DNA of 61,762 nucleotides, the filler included, from Sphacelaria rigidula (lineage: Eukaryota), in NCBI GenBank assembly GCA_964200075.2. It is 10 parts of 10 records of this genome, joined end to end, with 100 filler letters (N's around TTAATTAATTAA, not from the genome) between each part and the next. Parts side by side here need not be neighbours in the genome. Positions count along the whole stretch, not along the records: positions 6,188 to 12,274 come from CAXNAA020022329.1; 9 more parts are not named here. One strand, given 5' to 3'. The translations under genes and the position numbers were made by a program. Below, in pieces: positions 640-61,762 of the stretch. The notes beneath the pieces were generated by a model, which was given only the letters and a program-made list of their open reading frames with translations, had not been told where the DNA came from and searched no databases. The first letter of the stretch is position 1. Each line of letters starts with the position of its first letter.

Positions 640-2730
640 ACATTTGTCTCATTCACCACCTCTTTCCATACTCCCTTCTTTTTCTTCTCTGCCATATTTT
701 TTGCTTCCTTTCGAGCTTTAGTATACTCCTCCCATCCTATCGTAGTTTTACTCGATATACCTTCCTTCTTGCCTTTATAGTCTCTTTCACTTCCTAATCC
801 CACCATTTTATTGCTCTGTTGCATACGATCAGTCTAATCCCTTTGATTTCACTCGCTGTGTTTTTGACGAACTGCTCCCATCCTTCTTTCACCTTCGCTC
901 CTGCCCTACTTCTTTCCATTTTGGAATGAACTGTACCAAGGGTAGGTCGAGTGGAGTATACTCAATTGCGGGGTATTTTGGAAGTCGTACTTAAAGTACA
1001 CAAATTGGGGGTGGGGTTTCAGGAATCGCTTCCCAGCTATTTCTTGGGTACGACTTCCAACACTCTACCCTAACTCGCGTACCCCGAGTACGTCTTTTAA
1101 AATATCCCGCAATCGAGTATACTCTACTCGACCTGCCCTTGAACTGTACCTACGCGTTCCGACAGCGCGAAAAAAATCCCTGCATTTTTGGCCATCTCTT
1201 CTTGAAACTTCTGCTGTTTTTCATTGATTTCTAATATCGATTCTCCATCTGTACAACTTCCTATCCCGCTTATTTTTTTCAACTCTCGTTTTCTGGCTTC
1301 CTGCCAATATTGGGCAATGATCTGTGTTCCCACGTCCCCAGCGCGTACATGTACTTCCATTTCTTCACCATTCCATGCTCCACCACTATTTATTCAAGAA
1401 CGGAGCGTTCTCTCCCGTCTTCGCATTTTCTAGTTCATGTCCATTGCGCCTCTGGCTTTTGTGCTCTATCGTTCAGCGTCTTCATCTCGTTATGCTCAAG
1501 GAAGTTCAGCATTTCTACCCGATTCGTGGTCTTCTCATCTTCTCCGTATCGGCCAATGATATCATCCGGTTGACCTGCTTTTCCTACCCTTGCAATAAAT
1601 CTCCCACTAACAATACTTCACCTTGCCATTTATACTTATGTACATCTGCTATCTGTGCAAACTTTCACTGTATATTGTTCACCCTACTCTTCGATTCTGG
1701 AGACATGTACATGTTCCCTACAGGGAAGTCCTTCGTTTCCTGCTCTCCTAGTACCCCTATGCATATGCAGTCGTCGAATTTCGTGTCGTCGATCACTTTG
1801 ATGACCTCACGCAGGTATGTCTTGACTAAGAATCCTACTCCCCCCCTCCCCTGCTCTTGGGGTTCTGTCCCACTTTCCCCCTATCAATGCGTACTCTTCA
1901 ACTTTGCATCCTATTCCCGCCCCCTCTTTCTCCCCTGACTCTTGAATTCCTACTATATCTAGGGCGCGGTTACTTGTCCGACTATCCCTATCATGTTGCG
2001 CTTGTCTGTGGCGAATCCACATACGTTCCACGATCCTATTCTCAACTTCTCTTCCGAATCATCATCCACTCTTGTTTTGTCTACTCTCCTTTCTCCGTCG
2101 TTTTTATTTATGTTTTCCATTGCTTGGGGTTCTTCCCGTTTCCGGTTTGGTCGTTGTCTATTTGCTTCTAGCCGGTATGTCCCCTCCCCTTCCCCTTCCG
2201 GACACTTACCTGTTCCTGCTTCTCTTCCCCTCCGTTTACCCGTGGACTACGTCGTGGGTTTGCTGTTCCACTAGCTATGCATACTCTCCATCCTACCCTT
2301 CTAACCCATACCGACACCTTTCCTGTCGTTATCCTTTCCCACTCCTTGCTCGCGCTCTGATTTAGCGTGACTCGGAGTGTTCTCCCTCCCTCTCCACTTT
2401 TCCTATTGCCGAACAATTTAGTCCAATTGCATTGCATTCTCTTTAAGACTCTGTTCTCGTCATATCGCTACGGACTCCGAATACCAGCGCTGCTAGTACT
2501 TTACCACCCACTCTTTACTTTCTCCATCTGTCCTTCCTTACCGTCTCTCCCGATCTCTTTCGAGAGTATCTCCAGCTTGTTCGTTTAAAGTGTTGTAGTG
2601 GGATACAGTCAAGGTACTGGGATATCCCAATCCTAGCACTTGTTGGGGGTCTGGTGTCTTTCAGTTTTTTTCCTGGCTCAGCGACACTTGATAATGCCTC
2701 CCATGTGGGTTCGTAGCCTTCAGCCAAGTT
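640..2730 (-). mobile_element. Decayed LINE (APE endonuclease plus linker toward RT; possible ORF1 remnant upstream)
   Basis: Manual minus-strand translation across frameshifts gives LRIGSWNVCGF, LDIVGIQES, GEGGVGFLV, LLVGD..ARVG, SVLE.IV and TDHCPI (about 2046-1300). These are followed by WEEYTKARKEAK..KKKGVWKEVV (about 730-650), typical of the LINE ORF2 region between endonuclease and RT. Confidence 0.8.
937..1141. mobile_element. hAT-type MITE inserted in the LINE
   Basis: About 55-bp TIRs CAAGGGTAGGTCGAGT.../...ACTCGACCTGCCCTTG. Perfect 8-bp TSD AACTGTAC at 929-936 and 1142-1149. Confidence 0.9.
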
Positions 2731-3756
2731 CAGCCCCTTCGACGCAATTACCCCACGTCTGTGGGGGAGGAGGGGGTGTACTCATGATCTGGGGGAGGAG
2801 GGGGGGCAGCGGAATCGCCTACAAATTGGAAAAGTGTTCAAAAGGCTGAGGCACTGCCTGTGGCTTACATGTCGCCGACCGGCATCTTGCCCGTAGCAAC
2901 TGAATTGCCTAGATAGCTCGGCCTTGTGGACACGGGAATGCGAGAAGGATGGTTTTGAAACCGCAGGTATAGCGTTGGGTCTGAGGCCGTTTCACCTCTT
3001 GGGCCGCCCATCTGCACACGGTTGCATGTTTTGAGCCCGTTACGATAGCAGGCCACCGAAAGTTGACGCCTGACTCGTGTAGAATTGCGAGTTAATCTCC
3101 GATTATCATCGTCCTGTCGATCGTTCTTTCACGTCTAAAAAGTTTTTGCCTGTGTACTGTTGTAGCCCTTTTTGCTGTCGCGCAACACAGCAGCGTGTGA
3201 TGGAGGGTTTCGTGTGCGGTGGTCTTCATTTTTATTTTCCTTGAAGGAAGGAGGAAACTTCACCCAACACTTACTCCGCAAAACGGATTCGTGTGTCGAT
3301 TACTCGGAGGCTCAGCTAGATCACCGTGTCGTGGTCATATGGGGTAGACGCCTCGAGCGTTCCAAAAGCTTGGCTCAAGGTGGTGTGAGAGTTGAACTCA
3401 CGAAAACTCCCTGTCAACTTGACGCAGTGCACGCGCAGCCCTACTCTTATGGGCTTCGGCCCTTCATGTAAAGACGTTGACTTAAAGACGGCAGGAGCAC
3501 ACGCCATAGTGACGCACAAGACAGCACAACACACGAGACTGAAAGCTCCGCTGCCCTCGAGAATCAAACAGATCCAGCGCGAACCGTAACAGCTGTTGAT
3601 CAGCGGAATATGCTGCGCTTGGCTGTGGTTGACGAGAAACGCCGACACGTGACAGTCAACAACGGCACGTTTTCGGCTGCAAATGACACGCGCGCCTGAC
3701 CGCCCTTCCCCCATTACTGAACACATTTTCATGAAAGGTTGATGTGAGTAGATGAG

Positions 3757-4258: not shown

Positions 4259-6087
4259 TACACGCACCCATGGCCTTTTGTTTAATCAAAGGGACGTTTA
4301 ATGTCTTACGCACCATCTCTTCCCTACCGTTCCCCACAACACCTTCGACACCTTCAGGCCAACTTCGGTGAACCACGTTCAGGTTTGCCGCTCTAACGAA
4401 ACCGCCAAACGAGCGGAGACAATCGTGTACTCGAACATGCGGAACTACCACGGGAAGGACAACGTTCGCGGCGCCGGGCACACGAAGACTACGAAATAAA
4501 CCGAACAGCAACAACGTTTAGCGACCCCACTGTAAAAAAGACACGCAGTAACGACGCGTGTGTAAGTAAATATACTAATTCAGAGATAGGGCACGATTCA
4601 TTTTCCCAGAATGTCGCGTGTCTCTGAAGGAGGAGTAGGTACAATTACGGCGACGGGTGAGCATTACCGGACCCTAGTAGGCATTACCTGACCACAGGCC
4701 TGCCTTCTCTTCTGTTTTTGTCCCGGAGACGGGTGCTACATGTCAGCCCTGACATTTTGTTTGTTTTCCTTGCAGTTCAACTCTGCTCTCCATTCCTTTC
4801 CCATTATTATTTTATTATATCCATCACATATTTCCCCTTTATCGAGTTTTAGTTTGACGAATTTTTGCGATAGTAAAACCTTGGGTGCCTGTGTTGGGAC
4901 CACGACTGGATTTGTTAGCGGGGCAGTTTGAAGAGAATAAAAGCAATATCAGGGTGTGCCGTCGAGCCACTGCTAGGGGCGCTCACTATGTTGAGAAGGC
5001 GTGTTCTTTCCGACGAATTTGATCATTCAGAGTTGAGGGCTATCATGAGCACATGCGTATTGAGTGTAGATAGGAAACCGTCCTGTAGAGGGTCTCCCGC
5101 TAATCCCGTAGGCCTTGCTGGGTGGCATGGGTCTTGTGGGGGAAAGAGCTGCATGTCTGCGTCTGATGGACGCGATGCCCTGAAGCTCATTGTGGTATAT
5201 ATATAATATATATATATGTATATATACATATATATTTGTGATTTGATTCATTGTCGCACGCACATATGTGTTGGACGAACATGCCTCTCTCGAGGCACCT
5301 CGTACGGCGTCATGTGATGGACGATGACTTTTGGGGGTGACGACCGAGATATTACATGGAAAGACATGCGAAGTGATCTTGAAAGGCGTCAACGTTTGAG
5401 AGTGATGATTCCTCTCCTCGCTGTACACTGGGTTGGAAAGCAATTCCAGTGTGTTTCGGCAATCAACGGTGACGGTGATTGTGTGTACAGTGCTACCGCT
5501 GATCGCGTCGAGACGCTGAACTTACAAAGCTCGAGCTGCCACTAACAACGGATCAAGCGTGGTGAGCGACGTGGATGCACAGTTAGGCAACCGCTCCATT
5601 GTTCGTGCACATGTGCGAAGGCATGTACTACATGCTCTTCAGTCGGCCGTCTCCGCATAAGCGTTCGTTTCACTGACAAGCGAATTGCGTTGCCGTCGCA
5701 TGTCCCTTGCAAGAGGCGCTGTTGTTTGCCCCGGCGTTGAAACAGCGGCGTTGAACAGGTCAGCCCCAGGCTCTCAACTGTCGGCATATTCTGTGTACGC
5801 AGGTACCCATAACAAGTCGCAGCACCCATCTTACTCCAAACAACGAAGCACGCGGCAAGTGGACACATGAACTGGCGATGGCGGCGCGTGGAACTTGCAC
5901 AAAAAATGCGTCTTACGATCGCGGATGAAGAATGTGCGGCACCGACTAATAAGGGTCGTTATTAACTGGGCTGTTTTTTTCAGACTTTTCTGACTTTTTC
6001 GGGGGGGGGGGGGGGGGAGCCTGGGGAAAAGGGGGGGAGGAGAGGTTGGAAAGGGGGGGGGGAAAAAAAAAAAAAAAGAAAAAAAAA

Positions 6088-6187: not shown

Positions 6188-6556
6188 CTTTGTTTCATGA
6201 GTGCAGTAGGTCTTGGCATTTATGCCATGCAGTGTCCACCCCTTCCCTTCATTAGGTGCTTTTTGCACGCAATGTCGGGAATTTCTGGAAATGGCTGACC
6301 AGACTTTCACCGCCCAATGGAAACCGGTGAGGTTTCATGGGGATCTCACCACGAGGCCCCACCCTCCATGTGAATTTGACATGGAGGGGGTGATGACCCT
6401 ACCCTATCCGTACTGGTTATATCTTCTGCATTTTGGATTTGCATGTAAGGTGGTCATCCTTCATGCTGTTGTTTACATGTCTAGGTTTTGGATATATTCT
6501 TGTCTTGCGTTTCTCATAGTATGATGGGGGAGAATCTCGGTTCTTTTCCGCGATTC

Positions 6557-7312
6557 CATGTCTATGCCCGGGCTGTGTTATAGTAGGTTAAATAAAAAAG
6601 AGGGTTAGCTTCTCTTTTTCATGTCTATGTCCGGGCTGTGTTATAGTGGGTTAAATCAAAAGGAGGGTTAGCTTCTCTATTTCATGTCTATGTCCGGGCT
6701 GTGTTATAGTAGGTGAAATAGAACGAAGGATTGGCTTCTCCATTCCATGACTATGTCCGGGCTGTGTTATAGTGGGTTAAATCAAAAGGAGGGTTAGCTT
6801 CTCTATTTCATGTCTATGTCCGGGCTGTGTTATGGTAGGGTAAATAAAAAGGGGGGTTGGCTTTTCTATTCCATGTCTATGTCCGGGCTGTGTTATGGTA
6901 GGGTAAATAGAAAGGAGGGTTAGCCTCTCTATTTCGTGTCCATGTCCGGGCTGCGTTATAGTGGGTGAAATAAAAAGGAGGGTTAGCCTCTCTATTTCAT
7001 GTCCATGTCCGGGCTGTGTTATGGTACGTCAAATAAAAAGGAGGGTTAGCTTCTCCATTCCATGTCTGTGTCCGGGCTGTGTTATGGTAGGTGAAATAAA
7101 AAAGGAGGGTTAGCTTCTCTGTTCCATGTCTATGTCCGGGCTGTGATATGGTAGGTTAAATAAAAAGGGGGGTTAGCTTCTCTATTTCCTGTCTATGTCC
7201 GGGCTGTCTTATGGTAGGTTAAATAAAAAGGGGGTTCAGCTTCTCTATTTCCTGTCTATGTCCGGGCAGTGTTATAGTAGATTGAATAAGAAGGAGGTTA
7301 CCCTTTCTATTT
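6557..7312. repeat. 63-bp minisatellite, 12 units
   Basis: Unit CATGTCTATGTCCGGGCTGTGTTATAGTAGGTTAAATAAAAAGGAGGGTTAGCTTCTCTATTT starts at 6557, 6620, 6683, 6746, 6809, 6872, 6935, 6998, 7061, 7125, 7188 and 7251. Confidence 0.97.
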
Positions 7313-7402
7313 CGTGACAGTCTGTAAATTTGTCTAGGTTCCGGTGGCTTGTTTTACAGCGCCGTTGCCACTCGACGCCAACCCAAGAGTGTAGAGGTGT
7401 GT

Positions 7403-7500
7403 GGAGGGGGCGTCTCATGTGTTGCTTGCCTTAGTCGTCTGACCATTGACCACGCATCCCTTTCGAGACGGAGCACCGTTCCTACTCCTAATAGAGACAC
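7403..7500 (-). mobile_element. Interspersed repeat family B (sister of family A)
   Basis: GGGG..CTCATGTGTTGCTTGCCTTAGTCGTCTGACCATTGACCACGCATCCCTTTCGAGACGGAGCAC. Other copies at 7818-7897, 24482-24557, 29421-29527, 29528-29555 plus 30812-30835, 34380-34434 and 60601-60720. Confidence 0.85.
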
Positions 7501-7504
7501 CTCC

Positions 7505-7731
7505 TAGTGGGTTCAATAAAAAGGAGGGTTAGCTTCTCTATTTCATGTCTATGTCCGGGCTGTGTTATGGTAGGGTAAATCAAAAGGGGGGTTAGCTTCT
7601 CCATTTCCTGGCTATGTCCGAGCTGTGTTATGGTAGGTTAAATAAAAAGGGGGGTTAGCTTCTCTATTTCCTGTCTTTGCCCGGGCAGTGTTAGAGTAGA
7701 TTGAATAAGAAGGAGGTTGCCTTTTCTATTT
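7505..7731. repeat. Second block of the 63-bp minisatellite (about 3.6 units)
   Basis: Same unit, followed by the same downstream unique sequence (CGTGACAGTCTGT...CCCAAGAGTGTAGAGGTG) as the first block. Confidence 0.93.
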
Positions 7732-7970
7732 CGTGACAGTCTGTACATTTGTCTAGGTTCCGGTGGCTTGTTATACAGCGCCGTTGTCACTCGACGCCAA
7801 CCCAAGAGTGTAGAGGTGGGGGGGGAGGGGGGCGTTCTCATGTGTTGACCGCGTATGCCTTGCTACACGGAGCACCGTTCCTACTCCTGACGGACACAGC
7901 TTCGACACACGTGGGCACTATTCACATTTTTCCATGCCTTGAACAAGATTTGTTCTTGCATGTCTTCGAA

Positions 7971-8311
7971 GGGGGGAGGAGAGGGAGAGGGTGTGTGTGC
8001 TCATGATCTTGCATGCCATGGTCATAAGACCATTGACCTCGCATTTCTACACAGCCAGGCCGGGGCACACCGGGTTCTCGCCGGACCAGGCTCGCAATCA
8101 ACCACGAAGCGCGAAGCGCCGTGGTGTGCTCGACGAGTCGCATGAAGGGTGAGCTGCATCCTGCCGAGATTGTTCGGCCCGAAGCGTACTGATTATCTTG
8201 CACTCGGATGACAGCCTGCCCACAATGGGTTGCTTCATTTACTGGTATCGCCACTCCCAGAGACAGCCACACCTCACACACGGCCTCATGAGTGTCTCAT
8301 CATAGGGGGGC
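7971..8311 (-). mobile_element. Interspersed repeat family A, long copy (about 320 bp) flanked by G tracts
   Basis: GGGTGT..CTCATGATCTTGCATGCC.TAGTCATAAGACCATTGACCTCGCAT. Other copies at 2763-2790, 18402-18461, 19288-19429, 24569-24648, 34577-34688, 41100-41405, 42975-43130 and 61553-61762. Strand is given as the poly-C-ending strand. Confidence 0.85.
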
Positions 8312-9779
8312 GCGGTGTTTTCCGTGTTCAGGCGCCCTTGTTCCGAACCTTAAGCATCTCGATCAGTACGCCCGCCTCGCGCTACCGAACGTTGTGTTAA
8401 CGGAAACATAGTATCTGTAAAGACGTTTCGGATAGGAAACTCTTCAGAGTGTGTGGAAATTACATCCCGACAATGATATCGGGGTGGAGAAATGCACAGA
8501 CTTCGGGGGAAGGGAGGCATGCTCCATCACAAACCGTTATGACGGCGTGCAGCTTGAAGAGACTCCCACCTGGTACACACAATACGTGAAACAACCTCAA
8601 CCCGTGTGTGACGGCGTAGCTGTTTGATGTAGCTTTTTCAAGAAGGTGCGCGTTTCGAAGAAATGGACCAAGCGCGGGTTTGCAAAGCTCCCCACGAGAG
8701 GAAGGAAGGGGAAGTTCGGCGGGGGAGAGCCGTCAACGGCTGATCCAGTCTCGCTCTATTCCATCATATTTCTTGACATTTACCCCGTCACTCCTTGCAG
8801 TTCACATCAGGTGAAAACTTCATCGCAAAGTGCGCTGTACCGTGCTTCGCCGTACGAACCTCGAACGATACGTCGTCACCCGTGTCCCGGCAGGTTTGCA
8901 TGTAAGATGCACGGCGAACGGTTCCGCGAAATTGTGTGGCTATACACGATGAAGGCAGCTTTTGCTCTTACTTGCTTGGATAGTAGACCGGAGCGTCGAT
9001 ATTCTACACAGGCAAATGTTTTCACGTGAAGTCTACCGCGCCCGCCCGAAACTCTTAACCGCGACCACAAGCCGCAGGCAGAAGGGACTACCCAACGGCA
9101 CACGTGATATGATCATGACGTCACCGAACGGCCAGAAGGAGGGTACTCCGAAGATAGCTTGCAGTACTTGCTGTACTGCGCAAGCCAGCCGCTTATTTCG
9201 CGCGGTATGCTCATAATTTGATTGATTCGAGGTACACTGCGGACCACATCGCCGGGCGGATAGGCATGGTTATACCGCAAAGAAGTGTTCCGATCGCGTG
9301 ATCGATCCGTGGTGGGGACTGGTTATCCTCCATTGTGTCGGAGGAGTACTGGTTGGTGGACCGGCGCCGTGTCCATGTCGTCGCCGGTTTACATCCCAGA
9401 GCTCGCACAGTAGTAGGGGATGTGTACTATACAGTCAGAACCCTGTACGCCGTGCGATGCTACACTGGGAGTGATGCTTCGGTAGGGGTGCACAAATATT
9501 TTCTGAGATTAGAATTGTCAGGAGCCCCTTATCTCATCCTAAACACGACTCATGACAATATGCGAGAGTACGCCAGGATTCCAATTCAAATTTGCTGGGG
9601 ATATCCCGAATAAATCTGAAAACGAGGATGCCCTGACCCATATTCTTGTGCGTCTAGAATCGTGAGGAGCCCCTGAACCAGGCAAATTTTCGCGAAAAAA
9701 AGTGCACCCCTACCGTAACATTTCTTACTGGGCAAAGGTGTTCCAAAGCCGAAATGGCTGAGGATTCTGCCCTTCATGA

Positions 9780-12688: not shown

Positions 12689-13040
12689 CTCCCTCTCAAT
12701 GGAAAGTCATCTCAAAGGAAAGTAATCCAAAGGAGGAATTTGATGCAAAAAACACTTGTGCAAAATATAACATTATGCACTCCCACTGGCGACTAACAGA
12801 GATCGAACAAAGATCTCTCACGCTGTAGCATGTACGGTAGATGCAGCAAACGAAAAGAGCGCAAGAATGCTGTCTACAAGAAGTCAACAATTTTAGCCTA
12901 GATGCTCAAGCTATTCAGGGAAAGGAAGAAAATATTCACAAATCTTCTGAGGTTGCTACTCCGAACGAGATGTACAGAAGATTCCGCCCGGACTATCCCA
13001 TGGCTATGGTGAGGAGCCCGATCCTTGAGGTTTGGCGTCG

Positions 13041-16000: not shown

Positions 16001-16640
16001 CTTATCCGCCCGACTTGTAGTAGTACTTGGGAATTGGGATGTCCGAGTCGCTGATGCCACGTGTTGGCCATCGATGTAGCCGTTGAGGTGGCACATGCTG
16101 TCTCCTTTTCCGTGTCCTGGATCAAAGAGGCACTGGATGCTATATTTGTTCTTCACGCGGCAGATTTGCGCCGGAGGCGGTTTTTAAAATCGTGTCAAGC
16201 GCAGATGCTATCCGGTGCGATAGCCAGATCCAAGTAGTACATGTTGGTGGTGCAGGAGCTGTCATGTCGAAGAGGCAGCTTGAAGTTTCCCATTCTAATG
16301 AAAGAAAAATCATCAAAAACCAATGGCATCCCTCTTGTACTGCTGTTCCTCCCGAGAAAAGGTGACGACCCAGCCCTGGTGCAATGGTGAAGGGCAGCAG
16401 GACCTTGTGCTCGGCCCCGGTTTGGTCCCGTGTGACGACCTTCATTTTTCCTCTGCCGGTGCCGTGGAGTTTTCCCTTGCCGGCGACGTTGATGACGATC
16501 GGCGGGTCGTACTTCTGATACGCGATTATCTGGTGCTGAAGATTTGGAAGCAGGTCAGGGTCGACAAAGTGGTTACTGGCGCCGGTGTCGACAGCCATGG
16601 TGAAGCGCGAAGGAGCAGCGGCGGTGTTCAGGCTGGTGGT
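13041..16640 (-). pseudogene. pol: Copia pol (protease, integrase, reverse transcriptase, RNase H), disrupted
   Basis: Protease VDTGASNHFV. Integrase Zn region WHQRLGHPN..CGTC. DDE core STDLLG, HSDNGGEY and NGISER. RT motifs RFKARVV, MDVQTAFLNG, LRKSLYGLRQSP and LFVDD. RNase H motifs QSTSEAELIA and HIAVRF. Confidence 0.95.
15700..15938. mobile_element. MITE (GACAC...GTGTC termini, 4-bp TSD) inserted in copia integrase
   Basis: About 30-bp TIRs GACACTTTCTACGATAGCCCC with TTTT on both flanks. Partial copies at 30936-31012, 40344-40553 and 49493-49564. Confidence 0.9.
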
Positions 16641-16849
16641 GGCGACGAAGGAGTAACCCATTCCGGCAGGAGGTGAAGGGTCTGAAGGCGATGGATCTGA
16701 AGCCTGTTGAGTGGTGGCAGTCGCGGAAGTTGGAGTAGATGATCCGGCTGTGTTGTAGTGTCCCACCACAGTAGTAAACCCCGGTGCTACTGTTGCTGTG
16801 TGTGCTGCCGCGGTGGTGTTGTTGTTGTTACCACCTTGTCCGCTGTTGT

Positions 16850-18330
16850 TGTTCACGCCTCCTTGTCCACTGGTGTTGTTGAAGCGGGATTGTCCTTGCT
16901 GCTGTGGTCCGCTTTTGTGACGTGGTCCTCGGCCGCGCTGTCCTTGCTGCCGCTAATCGTCAGGATCGTTGCCTCAGTATTGTTGCGCCTTGCAGGTCGA
17001 ATTGTCGTGAAGACTGGTTTTGTGCAAGGAGCACCAACAGTTACTTCTTCCCCTTCCGTTGTTTCTTGTGATCTTTTTGTTGTTTCGCTTAAAGCAATAA
17101 TTGATGTCATGACCAGGCTTTTTGCAGTAGTTGCAGTATTTTGCCCTTGTGGCGGTCATCGCCGTGGTGCGACCCTCCGCTGCATGCAAAAGCCCGTTTC
17201 CTGCGACACGGTTTGCAAACATGTTCCTCATGGTGAACATGGCGTCTTCAAGATTAAAAGTGCCTTGTGATTCTGCAAGCAGCAGTTGAATCTGGGCGTA
17301 CTCGTCTGTCAGCCCATCCAGGATGATGTCCAGTATCCCGTCGTCCGTAATCACTCGACCCATCTCCGCTAGTTCATCTCGCAACGAAAATAGCTCGTTG
17401 CAGGAGACGTCCGGGTCTTGATCTTGCTGCATTCTCATGTTAGACAGCCTTTTCTGCCATAATTCGACGCCGCTGGCGTGAAGGGTTCTTGTATTTTTCC
17501 ACCAGACTATTCCAAGCGGCGATGCCGTTTGGCGAAGTGCCTGGTCTAGGCTTGTACTTTAGGAGAAAGCTTGCTGCCGGTCCTGCCGTACTCAAGAACA
17601 GGAAGTGGAACAGGATCTTGTTGGCCATGTGCCACTCCCGGATGTCCTCGACGTTCTGGACGTTGTCATCCATCTCCCACATTACAGAAGTAGGAGTCTC
17701 GCCGCTTGTTGAAGTCGGCTCATCTGGTGCAAGCTGCTGCTGTTGCTCGGGATGCAGTGCTGAGTCTCCTGCTGCATCGTTGTCTTCATCCTCTTCTTCA
17801 TCTTCGATGCTTGAGGTTACTTGTTTCTTGCGCTTACCAGCTTTGCCCTTGGTCTTCTTGTAAATGGTCGGTGGACATGGTCTGTCGTCCAGGATGTCTG
17901 CAATGCCCGAATGTCACATGCTGATCACGGACTGTGCTGTGCGCGACCAGACATCGAAGTCCGTCCCGTTGAACTTTCCGCCAACAGCCTTGACGAGCTT
18001 GTCCACTGCGTCCGCCGCAGCAGCATTTTTCAATGGCTCCCCCATGCTGCGGTGATCCTGTTACTGTTGTTGTTGTTGTTGCTGTTGTTGCTGTTGCCGT
18101 CCGTGTAGATGATGTGTACTCGTACAGCAGTCGTACGATAACGTTGAAAATTCCAAGAGAAACTGACAGTCCCTCAACAGAAGATGATGATGCACCCAGG
18201 TTCGAGTTACCTACAGGTGTTGGCTGCGAATGCCAGTTGATAGGCTTGATGGATCCGAAGTCCTTGCTTCTTGGCTAGTGTTGTTAGAAGATCCTGCCGA
18301 ACTGATGATGTCGTAGCTAAAGACGACATA
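16850..18330 (-). pseudogene. gag: Copia gag, disrupted
   Basis: KFNGTDFDVWSR near the N-terminus, a UBN2-like segment (IAAWNSLVEKY...ILDGLTDEY) and the CCHC knuckle CNYCKKPGHDINYC. Confidence 0.85.
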
Positions 18331-18920
18331 GCTGAGTGTCGTTGCTGATGACGACGCATTTCTCTTTTCTCGAAAAACCTCTCACGCAAGAGTCATCCTA
18401 CGGAAGGGGGAGGGGGGTGTACTCATGATCATGCATGCCATAGTCATAAGACCATTGACCTNNNNNNNNNNNNNNNNNNNNNNNNNNNNNNNNNNNNNNN
18501 NNNNNTTAATTAATTAANNNNNNNNNNNNNNNNNNNNNNNNNNNNNNNNNNNNNNNNNNNNGAAAAACTCAGAAAAAAAGACAACTACGAATTTTGAAAA
18601 CTTCTGACGCTGACTGCTATATGCCGGCCTACATCATGTCCTAAATTTCCACCGAAATTTTCGTCCGAATTCAATACGTGTGTGCTATGCACAGACTATC
18701 GAGATCTACGCCATAGACAGCAAACACGTAAACTCAACTGTACATTGTACGTATATACCGGGATGAGCCAGACTCTCAGTAAAAGTGAGCAGAAGTGGAA
18801 AAATTAAAAAACGCGTGCAGTTGACAGTTGACAGTTAGTCATTGATACACAAGGACACATGCCCGGGGCGTAGCCCGTGGACTACCTACACACTTGTTGG
18901 AGGATAAAATGACACCATAC

Positions 18921-19066: not shown

Positions 19067-19518
19067 CTGTAGTTACAGTAACCACCACAGCCACCACCAC
19101 CACCATAACAACAACAACAACAACAGCGACAACGAGGACAACGACGGTCAAAAGGGGACGGTAAGGGGGAAATGGTGTCAAGCGGTATGAATGGGTGGTT
19201 TTATCGGTAACAAGCGCGTCCGAATAACCATTATTGCTTTCAACGACCATTTTAAGTGGAATTCCTCGGAAAAAATCGCCCAAAACACCCCCCCCCCACC
19301 CTCCCCCGCCTGGTTCGGCGAAAACCCGGCGTGCTCCGCACCGGCTTTGTAGGGATGCGAGGTCAATGGTCTTTTGCCTACGGCATGCATGATCATGAGT
19401 GCACACACCCCTCCCATCCCCCCACCCCCGATTGGAGCATGACTCCTTCCCAGTACACAATCTACGCCGCTCCCGGATGTGTGCGCAGCACACTGTGGAT
19501 AAAAACAAGAGATTACAT

Positions 19519-24318: not shown

Positions 24319-24789
24319 TATACTTTTTTCGAGTGAAATCGATGTCGATTCAGCAGATGACCTACTCTCACCGTCTAAGGCCTATACTGGGACCAAGTTG
24401 AAAAATAGGAAGCATAAATAACGCCTGGGCGCTGCGTGGGCTGTGATAATTACGGGTTTCATTCAAAATACCGGTGGGTTAGGGGGGGGGGTGCACTCAT
24501 GTGTTGCTCGCCTTCGTCGTTTAACCATTGACCACGCATCCCTTTCGAGACGGAGCATAAATATCGGTGGGGGAGGAGGGGGGGTGCTCATGATCTTGCA
24601 TGCCGTAGTCACGAGACAAATGACCTCCTATCCTTACAAAGCCGGGAANNNNNNNNNNNNNNNNNNNNNNNNNNNNNNNNNNNNNNNNNNNNTTAATTAA
24701 TTAANNNNNNNNNNNNNNNNNNNNNNNNNNNNNNNNNNNNNNNNNNNNCCGAGAGTGAACGGTACTGCTTTTATAGCTATTATAAAAGC

Positions 24790-28558: not shown

Positions 28559-28619
<61 letters not shown>

Positions 28620-28910: not shown

Positions 28911-29555
28911 GTGAGAGGCTCGTTCGCTGTGCGTTTTTCTTTTTTTATATCATTATTGTCGTACTTTCAACCCAGTAGGGTTTCACCCACTTTCGGGTCT
29001 TTTCAAGGTTGATACTCTTCGTGACTACAGTGTGAACGCCGATATATTCGGATCTCTAGTGAGGTTGAAAGTCAGACCCGAGTTCCTCCTGGTGTGCGCA
29101 CAATGTATTTTCCTCGAAATCTGCGCATGCGGAACCCGTATGAGGCCTACCAACGAACTCTGTGCTTAAAACAACTTTTTTCCCACCCCCAAGTCCCGAG
29201 CGTTCTCGGTATGCCTTGATTGATCGATGATTGTCGCACTTTAACTGACCCCCCAGGGGTCCAACGGTGGGTTTAGGACCATTGGTTGGGGTTTGGGCTA
29301 GGGTTATCCTCATGAAAACAACACATCAAACATGGATGTAATGGCCCCGAACTGGGACAAAGCCCACCTTTCTCAAGCCTCCCTACCCCTACCCCCCAAA
29401 TGTTGGAGCTGTCTATATCAGCAGTAGGAACGGTGATCCGTCTCGTAAGGGACGCGTGGTCCATGTTCAAACGACTAATGCAAGCAACGGATGAGTACCC
29501 CCTGCCACCCCCGCACCCCCGCACCCCGACGACTAAGGCAAGCACGAAATGAGTA

Positions 29556-30811
29556 CAGTCGACCCCGCTTTAAGGACGACTTTCCCCCTCAAACCAGGGG
29601 GCCCGACAGAAAATACAACTAGCAGGGTATGTACCATTTTCTACTCTGCGGGCCCCCTTTTTTCACCTCTGGTGGGATGGTGAGCTATTGTCCCCTGATG
29701 TTTAAGGACGAAACCTCGCTTGAATGATGCTTTCCCCCCCCCGAAAAACCATGTGCGTCCTTAACCCCTTTGGGACCGGGCCTCCAGAACGACCAATGAG
29801 GCTGGTCAGGAATGACGTGTCTGGCGTCTGCACGGAACAGTGGCGTGTTGCTGAAAATCCGTGTTTGTATGTAACCGCATGGTTGTTATGACGAAGACCG
29901 AAACTTTCATCCAATCTGTTTTCAGGTGCAGGGTGCGCATTAGGTGATGTGCATCTGATGTAGCAAGCAGCATGAGTCGTGGCAGAGAGCTTCCAACAGG
30001 ATGCGGCGACATGTGGCTTTGAGTGAAACTTTTGTCCTCATCACCTTGCCATACAGCCCTTTGTGGTCGGGGTGGGCCGCCATTTCCCCCCCTTGTTGCA
30101 TGCAGCAAATATTCTCCCCGAAGGGTATTAGCGTTGCGGCGCGCATGCATACAACCGTACAGTACAGTACAGTCTAGTACGCCTCTCCGACTGAAGCAGC
30201 AGCTGCCGCTGCATACCCCCTTGCACGTTCTCGGCAGTTCTTAGCTACCGAAATCAGCTGGCTATTAACAGCTTTGTCATCCCCGTCCACTACATACATG
30301 TGGACTGCACACTGCAAGTCATCGGCAGAGGGATACGCAGAACTCATTACGGTAGCTCCTTATGTCTTCCCACAGCCCACCTGGATTTTGTGCCTCGTGA
30401 AAATGACCACATGGTGGCGTGTACATCCCTTCCCGGTTTTTTCCGGTCCACCCTGTGTTGGTGTAAATTACTACGTTTTAGTAGATAATTGGGACTCAAA
30501 AAACACTTCGGAAAAACTCGGGAACGGTATAGTGAGAGCAAGTAATACCAATGAACCAAGCTGCGACCACCCTGCACTTGGAAAGGTGGGGAGGCTTATT
30601 TGGGTCAGGGATAAGGCCCCTACACGATCTTTGCAGTGGCATTACACTCGACAACAATCCCCGCGCTGATCGTTCGGGTCTGGTCGATAATTTTCGCCTC
30701 GCCGTGATTGGGCAGGTCGCTCAGAGACATTTTCTTTTTATTTCACTAACACAGGGTCAACCCTGTGTTAGTGGGGATCCGGTCCCAAAAGGGTCAAAGC
30801 GGGGTCGACTG
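29556..30811. mobile_element. pogo/Tc1-type non-autonomous DNA transposon (1256 bp)
   Basis: Perfect 16-bp TIRs CAGTCGACCCCGCTTT / AAAGCGGGGTCGACTG with TA on both sides. Confidence 0.9.
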
Positions 30812-33445: not shown

Positions 33446-35706
33446 AGCGAGGGCGGGGAAAATGCGCCGCGGCCGGAGTGGCTGCCCGATGGTTGCGAGA
33501 TGCTGGCGGATGGCGAATACGACGCCATTGTGATGGGCACTGGCTTGAAGGAGGCAATCATGTCCGGGTTGCTGTCTACGCTGGGGATGAAGGTCAGGCA
33601 CATGGAGACAGGACAGAGGAAAAAGTTCCAAGAAAAGAGTAGCGATGAACAACGCACCTCACGTGTTTTCCTCAGCTTTCACGCACCTTGCGATCCTTGC
33701 GCGATCCATGGTGTCAGCCTCTCCACGAAGACATTCAACGTTTGGTGCCCCTGTCAGTACTTGAAGGTCGAAAGGGGATTTAGTGGGGATACAAGTAGGC
33801 GACTGCAGTTCGTGCTCAGATGGAAACGGCATGCTGCACTATCGCTGGAGATGTCCATGTGTATATATCAATCCGATCTTGTTGGTGTACAGTGCACAGT
33901 CGCCCCCACCGAGCTGATGAATTTTCACCTGCGTTGCTGCGCTTGGGATAAGTTATAGAATTGCGAAACCACACCCATCCTCTTCTTATTCTCGTTTCCC
34001 TCTGCGCAGGTACTGCACGTCGACCGGAACAACTACTACGGCGGAGAGTGCGCCTCGCTAAATCTCACCAACCTGTACGCCAAGTTCAGGCCTGGACAGA
34101 AACCTGCCGCGGAGCTGGGCCACCCCACTCGCGACTACAACGTGGACCTGATCCCCAAGTTCCTCATGGCAAACGGTGACCTCGTGAAGATGTTGCTCAT
34201 GACCAAGGTGAGGTCCACAGCTCTTGTTGAAAATGTTGAATCCTTGGAGCGCCGGATCTCGATTCAGAAACAAAAAACATCGCGGTTACTTCGAAAGGGT
34301 AGAACCCCGACGCGTTACCTTGACAGCTCCTCCCCAAGACCGCCTTCTACCAATGATGTTACACGGTTTATGTACAATGCCCCCCCTCCGTCTCGAAAGG
34401 GATGCGTGGTCAATGGTCAAATGAGTACACCCCCTAGTTATGGACAGGGTCACCAAAGGTGTTGTTCAGATCCTGCCAACGGTTCACCTAGACTCCATAC
34501 AAGGCATGTGACGCTCAGTGAGTAGTTCGTGGCGCCGAAATTGCCGGCAGAGAAAGGGTTTCCCCAGGCGGGAAATGGGGGGGGAGCGGTACTCATGATC
34601 TTGCATCCCGTAGTCGAGAGAGCATTGGCCTCGCATCCCTACAAACCCAGGACGGAGCACGCCGGTTTTTCATCTGGCCAGGGAAGGGTTCAAATGAAGA
34701 AGTAAATGAAGAAAGTGACGACTAAACGTTGGGTAACAGTGGTTGAAAGTGTGCAAGTCGTGCGATCGCTGGAAATGAAGATTGAGATATGAATATTGCC
34801 GAGGATGTGTCGACACTGATGCAGCTGTGAAACCTATTTTTTTGCGACGTAGTCAAGTATCTTCATGGAACAATGTGGATTGGATAAGGTCAACAATCAA
34901 GATTCACAGACGGGGGGGAGGGGGACACGTAGACGTGTAGACGTGTGAAGATCTATATTTCAGATTCGCAACGAATGAAGAATGGTGTGTGTGCACAGCA
35001 GATCATGTACAGAGAGCAATCGTCGGGTGGTAGCATGAAGAGTTTTCCTTGTTTTCTTGAGTGTTTGACTAGCTCGATATGGTCGATCGAATCGTTTGAG
35101 GAAACGGAGTACAGGAGGGAGTCTACCCTTGAGACTGATCGTACCATCGAATCGGTTTTCATGCTTGGTCGCGAGATCCTCCTCCTTTTCATGTTTGCGG
35201 CGAGAGTTTTTTGGCAAAAATGATTTGCATTTTGAGTCACAGACGTGAAAGTAAAGGATACGGCTTCTTCGTTCTCGTTTTTGTGCATGAAGATTGACTG
35301 GGACATGACCAAATCTAAGTATGATTTATGTAGGAGCATGACAACACTCTTGGGAGGAGGGTTCGGAACATCCGGTCAGAGAAGTGTGCCGGATTAACAT
35401 CGGACACAGCATGTCTCTTCACATCCACGTGTCTGGATGTGTTTGAATGCTAAGCCTTGTTGCCCAATGAAGCTCTCTGTACTTGTATCCAGTCTTTTTC
35501 GAGGTCGACGCACTGCCTCTTCGAGATGTGGCATTCGTGACTAAAGAATCAAGTGTTGCCTCCGTTACGATCAAACCCCAACTCTACAGAAGGATTCGTG
35601 ATTCCTCAAACGCGTTGGTTTTTCTCCTCTTGTACAGGTCACCCGGTACCTGGAGTTCAAGACCGTTGATGGCAGCTACGTGGTGAAGAGTGGCAAGATT
35701 AACAAG
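33446..35706 (+). CDS. GDI: Rab GDP-dissociation inhibitor, 5' part: exons 33446-33592, 34010-34207, 35638-35706
   Basis: Canonical AG/GT boundaries, all phase 0. Spliced product ...[46 protein letters not shown]...[49 protein letters not shown]. Confidence 0.97.
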
Positions 35707-36776: not shown

Positions 36777-37797
36777 CTACTCTCTCTTCCCTCTTCGCCC
36801 ATCCCCGCTCCTCGAGTTTCCTTGATGAGTTTTTTATTGCCCATTATTGAGCTCAAAGCATGTATCTATCAAGATGCCAAGAAAAGATGGATCAACTAAT
36901 TATGAATTAACCCTTTGGGAACCCTCCCCTCCCGTCTCCGGGCCAGACGCCTCATTATGAGAAGCCCTGACGAAGAAGAAAATATAGAAACAGAAAAGAC
37001 CGACGGAAACCATTTTCACTGNNNNNNNNNNNNNNNNNNNNNNNNNNNNNNNNNNNNNNNNNNNNTTAATTAATTAANNNNNNNNNNNNNNNNNNNNNNN
37101 NNNNNNNNNNNNNNNNNNNNNAACTGTCCAACGTCCAAGGCAAGCAACGAATTGGTACCCCCCCCCCCCCCCAAACAGCTGTTAGTAGGTGTTGGTACAT
37201 GACCTAAACGAGAATGTTGACGTGTATTTCATTCCGATTCCGTGGATGCCGATGGTAACGTGTGCGACTTGGCGTTGATACACAAATCGTATTGTAGAAG
37301 ATATAATTACAGTATTCTATTTTCTCGTGGTCTGAAGTACGAATGTCTTGTCTCTCATTTGTCCCTTGTCTACGTGAGTTCTTTGTATTTCTCAACGGAT
37401 ATTCCGAGTGGTTAACTTGTGTTGCGCCCATCTCGCGACCACAAGGGCAGGACTCGTAAGCAGGGAATCAGTCGAAGTTCGGCAAATGAGTGCAATGCAA
37501 TGCAATGTAATACAATCAATCAAATAGATTATATTGGGCATAGCTGCGTCCGGCTACGTGTATACCTCTGTGAACGTTTGGGACTTGAAGCTTCAACGCA
37601 TGAATGCCTTTTGCAGGAAATATCTCACAAAATCTTGGAGGTGAAAAGCGCCTCATCAGGTGGCGAGAAACAAATCAAAATCACCTTTTTTTTCGCATTT
37701 TGAGCAGGAATTAATTTATCCCATGTCAGCCAATGCCCGACCCGAAATCGTTTTCAACCGATGACGGTGAACCCAATGATCGAATTTGATTGATCAG

Positions 37798-40868: not shown

Positions 40869-43800
40869 GTAAGTACCGTAGGTGGTGTACGGGGTATAAC
40901 ACCCGGTCGATAAAAACTCACCCTGGGGTGAAAGTATGAAGGAGGCTCCGCACTGCCATAGAAGATCCCGTGTCCCGAAGTATCTCTCGGCGACGTATTC
41001 CCAACGACTCGACGTTTTTGCGGGAAAACCCGAGCAACGTCCATGCGGTGCGGGAGTGCTGATCCGATCGGCGGTATCAAAGTGTGAAGGCATATACTAG
41101 GAGAGGGTGTACTCATGATCTTGCATGCCGTAGCCATAAGACCATTATCTCACATTGCTGCAAAGGCCGGGACGGAGCTCGCCAGATTTTCGCCGGATCC
41201 GGCTCGCAATCACCAAGCCCGAAGCCCCGTAATATGTTTCGTGAGTCGCATGAAGGCCAAGTTGCACCCGGCTTAGATTGTTCGGTCCAAAGCGTACTGA
41301 TTACATTGCATATAGATGGAAGCCTACAATGAGATGCTTCATTTTCTGGTATCGCCACTTCCAGAGCCATAGATTACACACTGCCCTATTGGTGTCTCAC
41401 CAGGGATCAACCCCGGAGGATACAGACTCACCCCAAGGACGGGGGAGAGCGGGATTTGCTCAGTTGGTAACCTCGGAACCTTCTGACAGTTGAGTCGTGC
41501 GTTCGAATCTCGGTACGGTCATACGATCTGGGATTTTTTCTCACACGATAATAATAACAATGGAGAGCGACTATGTCGTAGGTACACAAAAATCGACGTC
41601 ACGGTCGCCGAGGGAAAGGAACCGCTGAGCCCCTCTCGCGATGAAAAATAAGACAAGCACTGTAGGAGGGAGATGGAGTACGAGAACCATATAAAAACTC
41701 CTGTGTTGGCCTTCCTCCTGCGTGACCCCGGCTGATGTGCCCACATATACCCGAAAGGTGTAGACTGACGTCCAGAATAGATTAAATGCACACCTTGGAC
41801 ATAAGAATACACAGTGAAAAAGTGTACTGCATACAGTATCGAAAATTGCGCCTATTGCAATAGACAATGTATTCCATACTGTACGCAGTACATTTTTTGT
41901 ACAATATAATCTTTTGTCCATGGTGTGATTAAATGACAACACAACAACACACACACACACACCTACATCCAGTAGCACGTCAAGATTTTACGTTGTATCT
42001 TGATTGTTTGTACACGATACGGCCGGGGAAGAAATGAGTGGATTGAACCCTCCTAAGATATAACGTGAAGATATATCGGACTCGTCCCCAGGCGAGACTT
42101 GGGGCAAGGGGTGAAAGCACAAAAGTGACAAAGATGCCTCTGCAGTGAAGATCCAGGTCGACAACTATTTCGGTTGTGAAAGGCTTGGAACGCGCAAAGA
42201 AGAGGAGTACGTAATTGTGGCGTGGAAGCACGAGATTAATAGGCACCGTGATCGGCTATTGCAAAATTAGATGATTCGCTACGAATCCGGTCGAGGTTCA
42301 AAGGCGGACATTCGTGCCGAACGTATATGTGTCGTAACGCTGGCTAGGGGGAACGTGACGGGGGGCAAAGGTGGAGAAGATAGGGGAGAAGAATAAGGAA
42401 TGAGAGTACGAGAGACAGCAGAATTTCGAAACACAAACGTAGAAAAACGAGGAATAAGTCACGCCTAAATGTACTGTAGCATCGGTCTCGAGGAGAAGGC
42501 GGACAGGCCCCCGCCGCATGATTATAGGTGAGGAATGAGGCTACGACTCATGTACGCAGTCTTTGCTGCTCCATGACAAGCTATGTTCCGCTGTCGGTCA
42601 CCCACGATTGAAAAAATCGTTGTTCGTTAAGGACATACGCATCGTGATTCGGTACTGGGAACTCTTGTCCCGGCATCGTCAACCACCCTCTTATCCAGTA
42701 TTGTTTGCTCTCGTCGAGCCGCCCGTTCTTGAACATGTTTTCGGTGGCAATGTTCACCTTGGCCACATGTAAATTTTGACCACGGCTGAATTATGATTCG
42801 TAGAGGATGACTTACTATGATGGAATGTGTGATGTTAATTCGCGGCAACGAACCGCATCAATTGCACATGCTTTGGACGAGGAAGATTAAAAGCGAAGAT
42901 CCGTTGCATTGCTCTAGTGGATGACACTCTTCGGTCGTTCGTAAGTTATGGGAAGCAGAAAGGACAACAGTTGACCCCCTCCTTCCCCTCCACACGCTCC
43001 GTGTTTGGTGATGAACTGCGAGTGTGGTCTGGCGAAAACCCGGCGTGCTCCGTCCTGGCGTTGTAGGGATGTGAGGTCAAAGGTCTTGTAGTTACTGCAT
43101 GTAGAATCATGAGTACCCCCCCCCCCCCCCACGAAGCAAACCACTCTATGGGGTTCCCCTATCCACGATACTCAGGACAATCACAGCCCGGCAATCAAGA
43201 CTTAAGCNNNNNNNNNNNNNNNNNNNNNNNNNNNNNNNNNNNNNNNNNNNNTTAATTAATTAANNNNNNNNNNNNNNNNNNNNNNNNNNNNNNNNNNNNN
43301 NNNNNNNAGCACACACGGAATGAAAAATTGGCCAAGTTCAAGCGAATGATCAAGGCCACTCTCAATCCGCACCCCACTCTCAATCTCACGAAAACCTTGT
43401 TATAAGTAGCACTACCGGTGAGCAGTGTCACAGAGTTCGGCATGGCTCAGACATGGTTCATCGCCAGCTTTAATAGGGGGCCAAGATCGGGGGAGATGGG
43501 GGACTGTCCCGATCTGAGCAGCAAGGCAATAAACCAAAAGTCAACGTTCAGCAAATCAGTGACTCGATCTGGTTTTCGAACAGCTAAATTAGCCGAAAAA
43601 CATTGCCCAACGAAGGGGGGTCTGAATATCGGCACAGGGCCCACAGATAGGGAGGGGGCAATAATTTAGACTGGCACGATTTTTCCAGTAGGCCTGCGAC
43701 AAGGCGGTGCTTTCGACAAAAATGACCACAGCCGCCAACAGCCTAAGCCACTACATTCGCATGATCATGCTTTGTAGCGCAGCAGTACACTACACAAGTC

Positions 43801-58777: not shown

Positions 58778-61003
58778 TCAACACCCCGCGCCAAGAGACA
58801 TATCAAGTGAGCTAACTTTGATGGAAGACCACGATGCATGCCGAGAACATATTTGGCTGCTACCTCCGGCTGTGTGATGCGGCGATCATGCGTGGCGTGG
58901 TAGTTTGGATGAAATCGCGTTCTTTGTTCTATTCGGAAAACAGAGAGAGGGGGGAGAGGGGGGGGGAACGACGGAGAAAGACCGTCAGGTCAAAAAAATG
59001 ATTTTTCGATGAAAACCATTGGAATTGTGGTGCGATGTCCGGGCAACAGCCTAGGGTGCGAAATACGCTGCCACTTGGCTTCTACCGATCAAGCTCGTAC
59101 CGATTTTTTCCCCACGACGATCGATATGAAAAGGCCTAACTAGCATAATCGGTGAGAGCCTAGTTGCCACTCTCGAAGTGAGTATCGACGCCAAAACATA
59201 ACTAATTGTGTCCAGTGACTTAAATGTCCACCCAGTGATGCCCATCGATCGCGTCGAATCTGCTTCAGCGGCCTTCACAGACTGTGTAGGGTCACAACGT
59301 AGATTTTTAAGTGTCACTTCACCTGGATGTAGGTGCGACATATTTGGCAGCACAATGCCACCTTGGCTCGGCGCTGTGGGTGTGCAGAGCACATGAACCC
59401 CGCTACAGCAGTCGACACGCGATCGACTCATTTCAAGACTTGAAGTAATTTACGATGTTAGGCGGTTACCCCATGACCGTTGAAAAAAAAATGTGAAAAA
59501 AAAATCTGTCTGTGAGAAAAGTAATAAAAAGTTGTCTCAAAATTTAAAACTCTCGTCTTCTTCCAATGGTGCAATGGAATCAATCTACTGTCCCACGGTC
59601 GTTTTCCTTTCTCCACAAATTACGCCGATACTGTTGTGTCAAACGCCTAGTCTGGAATCTCTTGCTGATGGTAGGCTGTCCTTGAGTAAGTATGAACACC
59701 TCACCGTACCTAGTTAGGAGGGGGGCTGTGGACTAGATAAGGTACAACTTCGTGATTTTCGTCTGTAAAAGGTGCGATTTCGGACTAGGTGTGCAGAGCT
59801 AGAAAAGCACGTCAGAATGACCGTTTTCGGTCGCATTGTTTGAAACACATCAACTGGGGATATGTGCTGCGCCTACACGTTGAAAAGACTTTGGAGGGGG
59901 AGGGGAGGAACGCACTCTTGCCTCGTGCGGTCCGTTTCCAAAGCGGAGCTTCTCTTCAAATTCACCTTGTGCCCTCGCTAGGCGGAAATTCTAGAGGCAT
60001 ACCAAATCTGCAGGGGGGGGGCACAAAAAGGGTACACCCTCGTGTTTGTGGAACAAAAAGGGTACCGCATGTTTTCGGTTTGGGGCGCGGCGCTGCACGC
60101 GTGCTGAACACCTCGAGAACGTCCTCTAGCGCATCAACCCCCATGCCCAAGGTACGTGGGCGGCATGTCCGATCATTTGTTTATTGTAGCACGTGGTACA
60201 AGGCTCAACTACGGCGCGGAAAGGATTAGAGTAACGGTTTATATATATAAACCAGGAGGGTACACCCTACTCTGCTAAAAACTCATACCATACCTTTTTT
60301 TGCTCACGTGTCCACCCTGTCATGCTCAAGTGCATACCATTCTCTATGAAGTGGTGGCCGTACCGGCGGCTCCGCAGAAGAGACGCCGAACAGTCATAAC
60401 TATGCCCATTTTATGTGAAAGTACACGCCGCCAAAAAAGCAGAAACCCAACGACCACGAAATTGTAGCCCCCTGCTGGTTGGCCCGCAGACCCGGAAGAT
60501 CCGACGACGATTAATCCAGGGCCCGAACGCGTGTGTGCCGGAGATCGCAAAGATCCAATGAACATGTGTGAAAAGTCTTACCGACACACACACGCCCGAA
60601 CGTGTCACCATGTAGGAGTAGGGACAGTGCTCCGTCTCGAAGGGGATGCGTGGTCAATGGTCAGACAACTAAGGGAAGCAACAAACGAGTACGCACCCTT
60701 CCTCCCCCCGCCCCCCCACCTTTTCTAGCCGACTACGCCCCTCACCAAGTCGCCACAAGAGTAAGGGGGTGAAATGAGAACCAAAAGCAGGAACATATCA
60801 TACCCGCCAAAAATGGGGAGAACTCGTGTCTATATTCGGAATCGACGCTCAGATTCTAGTGTGTGGGAAATCTTCGTGAGGAGTGTTCGGATAGCGGCAA
60901 ACCACCGTCGGAGCGTCGCGGTGGAAGGAGCTGTTTGTGGACGGAGCCTCGAGATTTACGTCGGAGAAAACACGACGGGGTCAAGCGTTATGTTTTGACG
61001 AAC

Positions 61004-61317: not shown

Positions 61318-61762
61318 TAGTTGCTGTTGCTGGTGGTTTGGTCAGGGGCGCGCGCCGACTACATGTCCTACATAAGGTCCTCGAGAAGTCCATTCCCGAC
61401 TAGACAGGATGGAAAGGGCCATCTAGGGAAGGTATTACAAAAAAAACGGGTCAGATCCGGTATTCTTCTGTAGTCTATGCCTAGCGACGATACAGGGTTG
61501 ATGTGAGGAGAAGCTCCGTCTTGTGCATGGACCGCACGGGACGAGGATGCGACCTCTCCCCCCCCCGTCTAATGGTGAGACACCCATGAAGCAGGTAATC
61601 CGTGACTTTCTCTGGAAGTTGCGACACCAGAAAATGAAGTCACTCACTGTAGGCTGCCATCCGTATGCAAGATAATCAGTACACTTCGGGCCGAACAATC
61701 TTAGCAGGATGCAGCTCACCATTCATGCGACTCGCCGCACACACCACGGCTCTTCGCGCTTG

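Follow-up and report, generated by a model that had tools for sequence, protein, structure and literature searches.

LINE/SINE partnerships and tail-primed insertion are textbook biology, and LINE tails include (TAA)n in the I element and (TGTAA)n in UnaL2. The excerpted text of Ohshima (2013; PMC3747384) treats tail-sharing LINE/SINE pairs as established, and likewise non-poly(A) tails such as (TAA)n, (TGTAA)n, and (TTG)n; it describes L1-type priming as the pairing of a T-rich nick with poly(A). Stringent-type pairs, such as UnaL2/UnaSINE1 and the CR1- and RTE-tailed SINEs, comprise a short non-coding element with about 80 nt of the LINE 3' end, and have a non-poly(A) tail and 5' truncation (same excerpts). 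Microsatellite-targeting non-LTR elements are also known, namely Togen, which targets (TG)n, and the HERO families; these are restriction-like-endonuclease elements whose insertion is biased to simple repeats, with the repeat on both flanks (Kojima and Jurka 2015, PMC4640811, in excerpt). Chlamys-type Penelope-like elements (PLEs), as covered by the excerpts of Craig et al. (2021; PMC8557442), have a GIY-YIG domain and a telomerase-like reverse transcriptase (RT); they are reported to insert preferentially at (CA)n and (C)n, to be 5'-truncated, and to have non-autonomous partners with a common 3' end.

We analysed two repeat families, A and B, in 61,762 nt of DNA from Sphacelaria rigidula (assembly GCA_964200075.2; hereafter the window), which is made up of ten ~6087-bp scaffolds joined by N44-TTAATTAATTAA-N44 spacers. 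Family B represents the 3' end, truncated on its 5' side, of an autonomous non-LTR retrotransposon (LINE) of the APE type, and family A is a short non-coding element that carries about 80 nt of the same 3' end. They resemble the stringent-type pairs in this segment, in a tail that is not poly(A), and in 5' truncation, but differ in that the tail is a C homopolymer, no stem-loop is supported, and no tRNA, 5S, or 7SL head was detected in A. With L1 they share a homopolymer tail complementary to the target primer strand, target duplications (at two sites) that start with the tail's base, and insertion into older tails, yet the homopolymer is C/G, not A/T; polyadenylation cannot supply a C tail, which must therefore be copied from the source element during transcription or arise by slippage. 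As in Togen and HERO, insertion is biased to simple repeats, which can lie on both flanks, whereas the target here is a mononucleotide run that is not obligatory (absent at 5 of 15 5' junctions) and the endonuclease is of the AP type. Full-text literature searches returned no APE-type LINE that has a C tail or prefers C/G runs, although Repbase or Dfam may contain such an entry, and the excerpted text of the Phaeoexplorer preprint carries no TE detail. The pair described here thus departs in an uncommon way from a familiar class of mobile element.

Searching the window with blastn, using 7971–8311 and 7381–7500 as queries, recovered every copy of the initial annotation, which had listed about 16 on eight scaffolds. 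With one extra copy (37122–37157), the total is 17 on eight of the ten scaffolds (nine of family A, eight of family B), a density of about one per 3.6 kb. The common end motif that it described is real: in the alignment, all 16 window copies with a visible 3' side keep the terminus. Read with the G tract first, a copy has the form G-rich tract, (T/C)GTACTCAT(G).., element, variable cut.

Three copies of family A reach a common 5' end, which had been recognised from the outset (..TGGTGAGACAC..), and define a unit of 295–309 nt. The copy at 7971 (7996..8304, minus strand; 3' end 7996, 5' end 8304 by blastn) is full-length at about 309 nt and without an ORF; its C-rich 3' tail or target tract occupies 7971..7995 (minus), where the plus strand reads GGGGGGAGGAGAGGGAGAGGGTGTG, and an additional run of six G lies at its 5' junction (8305–8310). 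The copy at 41100 (41108..41402, minus) is also full-length and has only a weak tract (GGAGAGGG) beside its 3' end, and the copy at 61553 (61570..61762, plus) has a complete 5' end, with C9 at the 5' junction (61558–61566), and has lost its 3' part at the scaffold end. Three others are 5'-truncated: a 96-nt copy at 19308..19403 (plus) with C-rich tracts on both sides (19288–19307 and 19404–19428), one at 34590..34682 (minus) with its tail at 34577–34589, and one at 42992..43115 (plus) between a C-rich 5' tract (42975–42991) and a C15 tail (43116–43130). Scaffold ends cut two copies that retain the A 3' end, at 18418..18461 (minus; tail 18402–18417) and 24585..24648 (minus; tail 24569–24584), and a 14-nt remnant of the A 3' end at 2777..2790 (minus) is flanked by two identical 14-nt tracts (2763–2776 and 2791–2804).

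Family B copies are 29–103 nt long, compared with 4.3 kb for the element; all eight in the window keep the 3' end, and they span only the last 13–31 codons of the LINE ORF. The copy at 7411..7504 (minus) corresponds to the LINE's last 94 nt, encodes the ORF C-terminus, and is 95% identical to the complete element L177 described below. A second, internally rearranged copy (7833..7935, minus; tail 7818–7832) lies with it in a duplicated 400-bp block (7099–7502 matches 7518–7901 at 85% identity), so the two may represent one insertion event, not two. Further copies are 66 nt (24492..24557, minus; G10 tail tract 24482–24491), 100 nt (29398..29497, plus; tail 29498–29528), and 91 nt long (60602..60692, plus; tail 60693–60717), and a 43-nt copy with an internal deletion (34387..34429, plus) has C7 at its 5' junction (34380–34386) and a C5 tail (34430–34434). 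A 29-nt remnant at 29529..29557 (plus), without a C tail of its own, is stacked on the tail of the preceding copy. The copy absent from the initial annotation is a B-like 3' end that opens a scaffold (37122..37157, plus) and carries a C15 tail (37158–37172). Both the stacking of copies (7818+7971, 24482+24569, 29421+29528) and their coincidence with four scaffold ends (18461, 24648, 61762, and 37122) are as first described.

Variable truncation at the opposite end is likewise borne out: 5' cuts differ among copies, all visible 3' ends are intact, and truncation is one-sided, not symmetric. This end analysis supports the reading of the copies as retroposons, which had been proposed from a constant 3' end with 5' truncation. 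A DNA transposon or MITE with terminal inverted repeats is a highly improbable source of the same copies. A palindrome, CTCATGAG, does occur near both ends of the copy at 7971, together with one 13-nt imperfect inverted pair, but this pair lies partly in the flank (7987–7999) and is missing from the copy at 41100, in keeping with the absence of terminal inverted repeats in the original description; one-sided truncation and the identity of B as a LINE end also speak against such an element.

Pattern scanning of metagenome contigs gave 119 loci, two of which (L029 and L051) are true copies, the others being 18–20-nt chance matches; the scan of genome contigs gave 57 loci with one true copy (L160; the whole contig is L177), and two pattern scans of viral contigs gave no copies. 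L029, L051, and L177 are metagenome or MAG records outside the window's own assembly. L029 and L051 hold true B copies at 93–94% identity and are 89.6% identical to each other over 1207 bp past the part covered by the window. In L029, where the 3' end of the coding strand reads ..ATGAGTACG-C8, B continues unbroken into a 1014-aa open frame that runs off the locus and contains RVT_1 (Pfam, E 5e-33). L177 is a complete element, with its 3' end at position 110, after G13 on the plus strand, its 5' end at 4415, and a 1382-aa open frame with zero stops; B copies are 83–98% identical to it. Its protein relatives of full length, P0002 (1360 aa, 90%) and P0004 (1328 aa, 76%), both have Exo_endo_phos, Exo_endo_phos_2, and RVT_1 domains (Pfam), which in P0002 lie at 170–392 (PF03372), 279–414 (PF14529), and 740–989 (PF00078). 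The order in the LINE is N-terminal region, AP endonuclease, RT, and C-terminal Cys/His motif, and in a PDB search, L1 ORF2p and R2 score equally (E ~1e-21 to 1e-22); a protein atlas supplied neither a taxon nor a clade name. Extending copies 5' and searching for an RT ORF, as the initial annotation had suggested, thus yielded an APE-type LINE (Exo_endo_phos plus RVT_1), and its phrase "3' ends of an RT element" is true of family B, which is contiguous with an RT-encoding ORF.

The window itself contains the 5' half of a related LINE on scaffold 1 (642..2763, minus), which covers aa 1–571 of P0002 at 40–70% identity with frame breaks; its 3' half is absent. Its DNA is 74.7% identical to L177 over 1146–2763, and the two elements have the same 5' terminus, which in the window lies at 2763 and adjoins a C tract. 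Since homology between the two halts at the same 5' point and the flanks are different, the element is about 4.3 kb long.

The same domain content bears on a link to Chlamys-type PLEs, which the initial annotation had drawn and which does not hold. Non-autonomous derivatives of such an element would fit the (CA)n/(C)n insertion bias and non-autonomous elements reported in the excerpts of PMC8557442, and the copies here are 5'-truncated and stacked. The ORF contiguous with B, however, has an AP endonuclease N-terminal to a LINE-type RT, where Chlamys elements have GIY-YIG and a telomerase-like RT; GIY-YIG is absent at E≤1 in P0001, P0002, P0004, and P0007; and there are no pseudo-LTRs around L177 or in the window and no hammerhead ribozyme. 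Pfam having returned Exo_endo_phos and RVT_1 and no GIY-YIG domain, the element is not Penelope-like, and we give a Chlamys origin almost no credence.

The LINE ORF, 1360–1382 aa long, ends 5 nt short of the terminus ..ATGAGTAC(G/A), after which the (C)n tail follows; in L160/L177 the stop codon lies 5 nt before the G13 run on the plus strand. The TGA stop is inside the conserved terminus ..AAATGAGTACG (L177 110–117; L029 689–696), so the LINE 3' UTR is only 5 nt long and the segment common to A and the LINE is the end of the LINE coding sequence. Unnamed LINE proteins of Ectocarpus sp. CCAP 1310/34 (P0007 and others) are 45–62% identical over the RT and C-terminus and, like the LINE described here, conserve a C-terminal peptide (..APS.RG.VVNG..). 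This peptide, ..APS.(K/R)G.VVNG.., is kept in the Ectocarpus relatives at 57% identity, and an RNA-level signal may be the cause of its conservation.

Family A has stops in all frames and is non-coding. It can be aligned with B and the LINE only over its last ~75–85 nt, and its first ~225 nt had no match in the LINE DNA compared; in the LINE frame the A tail reads ..GCEVNGLMTTACK.., which resembles the LINE peptide but has a 6-nt insertion upstream. Because only this segment is shared, A is best described as a SINE-like non-coding passenger with a LINE-derived tail, and the initial label "non-autonomous retroposons" applies to it. ARAGORN found no tRNA genes, Rfam gave no matches at gathering scores across the whole window, and a search of the two full-length A copies at E≤10 returned only noise, with no pol III-type head and no hammerhead; the tRNA head reported as absent is indeed missing by these tests. 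As no tRNA or Rfam family was detected in A, it is only possibly a SINE in the strict sense, perhaps one with a diverged or novel pol III head. Pairwise identity among A copies is 75–93%, compared with 83–98% between B copies and L177, so A looks older on average. Family A was not found in G001.

A terminal hairpin (GGTCTT/AAGATC) that the initial annotation saw at the A end did not withstand comparison: it pairs in 58% of cells with 0 compensatory pairs, no better than shuffles, and it is lost in family B. RNAalifold on 11 ends gave -4.9 kcal/mol, with a compensatory change at 0 of 14 pairs. The pairing GUGCUC..GAGUAC is conserved but uninformative, since it never varies.

Tracts at both junctions were scored against background. 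With at least 10 G in 16 nt beside the end as the criterion, and 16 window copies plus L029 and L051 as the set, a 3' tract is present in 15 of 18 copies (background 0.66% of 121,328 windows); the exceptions at 41100, 29528, and 34380 have 6 G each. A C5+ run within 20 nt is present at 10 of the 15 5' junctions that were read (background 1.9%; binomial P 2e-14), namely at 2763, 7971, 19288, 42975, 61553, 24482, 29421, 29528, 34380, and the scaffold-1 LINE, and absent at 34577, 41100, 7403, 60601, and L177. Clear target duplications are found at two sites, the other junctions being C-only or without any: at 24482, a 13-nt CCCACCGRTATTT on both sides (12/13 matching) begins in the last C's of the adjacent A copy's tail, and at 2763/2791, the A remnant lies between identical 14-nt CCCCCTCCTCCCCC tracts. 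L177 and the copies at 41100, 7403, and 60601 have no 5' C run and no detectable target duplication. The proposed targeting of C/G homopolymers therefore stands as an association at both 3' and 5' junctions, but the C run behaves at least in part like the element's own 3' tail, as in L177.

How much of the association is tail and how much is target is the point on which the closest rival turns. In that explanation, the C run is no more than a 3' tail, templated or produced by slippage, sites are otherwise unselected, and 5' C runs are old genomic tails. Full-length L177, whose 3' end carries C13 while its 5' end lacks a C run, fits it, and so do the interrupted tails of one form (CCCCCTCCTCCCCC) that recur at 2763, 2791, and 24569, a recurrence that suggests inheritance through RNA; of the ten 5' tracts, two can be recognised as a neighbour's tail (29528 and the LINE at 2763). 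Most 5' C runs, however, have no recognisable element upstream, their frequency far exceeds background, and the target duplications at 24482 and 2763 start inside C runs, so that we consider a tail without target preference unlikely. No paralogous empty sites were found in the window, and no empty-site joints among the 15 listed of 911 joints in the sequencing runs, which limits how sharply tail and target can be told apart. We infer that the element truly ends in a C tail and, in addition, prefers to integrate where a G-rich primer is exposed, much as L1 favours T-rich nicks.

C/G runs of at least 6 nt number 58 in the window, compared with 20.4 in shuffles, and those of at least 9 nt number 17, compared with 0.3 expected; A/T runs are likewise enriched (131 versus 26.5). 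Another repeat family, with an internal G9–G11 between inverted arms (GACACTT...AAGTGTC), occurs at 15700–15938 (minus), 40344–40553 (plus), and 49493–49564 (plus), so some long G runs come from neither A nor B. The end of scaffold 5 (30790–30835) reads ..GGGGTCGACTGTACG followed by C20; the same sequence at 29557–29580 adjoins the B remnant at 29529 tail-to-tail, with no homopolymer between them, and could belong to a third family that likewise ends in GTAC(G). The end of scaffold 1 (6001–6087) is a compound homopolymer block at an assembly break, G17..G7..G10 followed by about 25 A.

Contigs from four sequencing runs of the same genome were aligned to 7380–8600 at 80% likeness, which gave 98,860 (X1), 107,778 (X3), 27,190 (X4), and 5,528 (X6) contigs; that X6 is RNA is a guess only. 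Past the truncation point at 7504, the LINE body (AACATTTGGGCGCTCATTACG...) continues in 994 (X1), 1027 (X3), 293 (X4), and 113 (X6) contigs, as in L029. Before the B end, the loose-end consensus is G20–26 followed by CGTA in 843, 831, 171, and 125 contigs of the four runs. For the A end, X3 has 407 and 450 contigs with preceding G runs, and X6 has 64 and 55; the link between C/G runs and the fixed end is genome-wide. The joint equivalent to 24482+24569 recurs in 13 (X1), 13 (X3), and 3 (X6) contigs. The contig depth summed over A is greatest in the middle of the element rather than at its 3' end, and such depth cannot rank parts of the element. The pure-G loose-end consensus, and the several scaffolds that end in C/G runs (30816–30835 and 55678–55685), are what sequencing or assembly artefacts such as poly-G read ends would produce. 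Yet most tracts are internal and imperfect (GGGGGAGGAGGGGG) with unique sequence on their flanks, and an identical junction occurs in the three independent records L029, L051, and L177, which makes an artefactual origin of the runs exceedingly unlikely.

Several other features share the window with these copies. Host exons encode Arf (18882–19520, minus), adaptin N (28300–28914, plus), and GDI (33158–34525, plus), and three copies (19308, 34387, and 34590) are no more than a few hundred bases away from host exons, probably in introns. A copia-type LTR retrotransposon on scaffold 3 (12898–17558, minus) has gag, integrase, SH3-like, and RVT_2 domains and several broken frames; the best named relative of its polyprotein is an Ectocarpus sp. 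CCAP 1310/34 protein (69% identity). As the LINE, too, has its best named relatives in that alga, homology points to a brown alga, or something close to one among the stramenopiles, as the probable host. A self-complementary, hairpin-forming, MITE-like element of about 150 bp (41781–41934), with partial copies at 19505–19603, 20933–21007, and 28243–28306, has weak miRNA-precursor Rfam scores far under gathering thresholds.

A 63-bp satellite array occupies 6553–7313 and 7515–7732 (12 and 3.5 units) and recurs in L177 (5118–5259), and a ~300-bp repeat at 6189–6488 matches L177 4784–5056; repeat and satellite lie together beside LINE copies in two independent records. The duplicated block around the two B copies is made up of satellite, spacer, G tract, and B tail, and the satellite-LINE block might be a VNTR-bearing composite retroposon. 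A diverged segment resembling the LINE tail, ..GGTGCTCCGTC..GGTCAATGG..TTTCATGAGT.C, is found inside the ~300-bp repeat (window 6188–6205; L177 4740–4797); at 6188–6205 it is in opposite orientation to the nearby B copies, with no C run directly after it.

Overall, we think it likely that B is the tail of an APE-type LINE, that A is its passenger, and that both insert at G runs by oligo-C priming. The endonuclease would nick the bottom strand within a G run or next to one, and the exposed G-rich 3' end would pair with the oligo-C tail of the RNA and prime reverse transcription. Premature termination of reverse transcription would leave the 5' truncations, and a staggered second nick would create target duplications that begin with C. 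Because A carries only the last ~75–85 nt of the LINE, the LINE enzyme would copy it in trans, following the pattern of stringent-type LINE/SINE pairs. Each insertion would deposit a new C/G tract, itself a preferred landing site, and the use of old tails as landing sites would account for the stacking of copies.

A broader reading, possible though tentative, is that a stramenopile (brown-alga-like) LINE lineage swapped the poly(A) connection for oligo(C): the C tail would be read from the source copy's tract, prime on nicked G runs, and be re-deposited there. The LINE and its SINE partner of ~10^5 contigs would in this way have sowed most of the long C/G homopolymers, as self-reinforcing landing pads that break short-read assemblies. 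A cis signal for the RT would lie in the ORF's final ~25 codons and account for the conservation of the encoded peptide out to Ectocarpus, and the segment recognised by the RT would then overlap coding sequence. If the model of oligo-C-primed insertion at G runs is right, it would provide a second natural example of homopolymer tail priming beside L1/poly(A), and it would explain both the richness of this genome in long C/G runs (17 of at least 9 nt versus 0.3 expected) and the shattering of short-read assemblies at these repeats, which about 100,000 contigs per run match.
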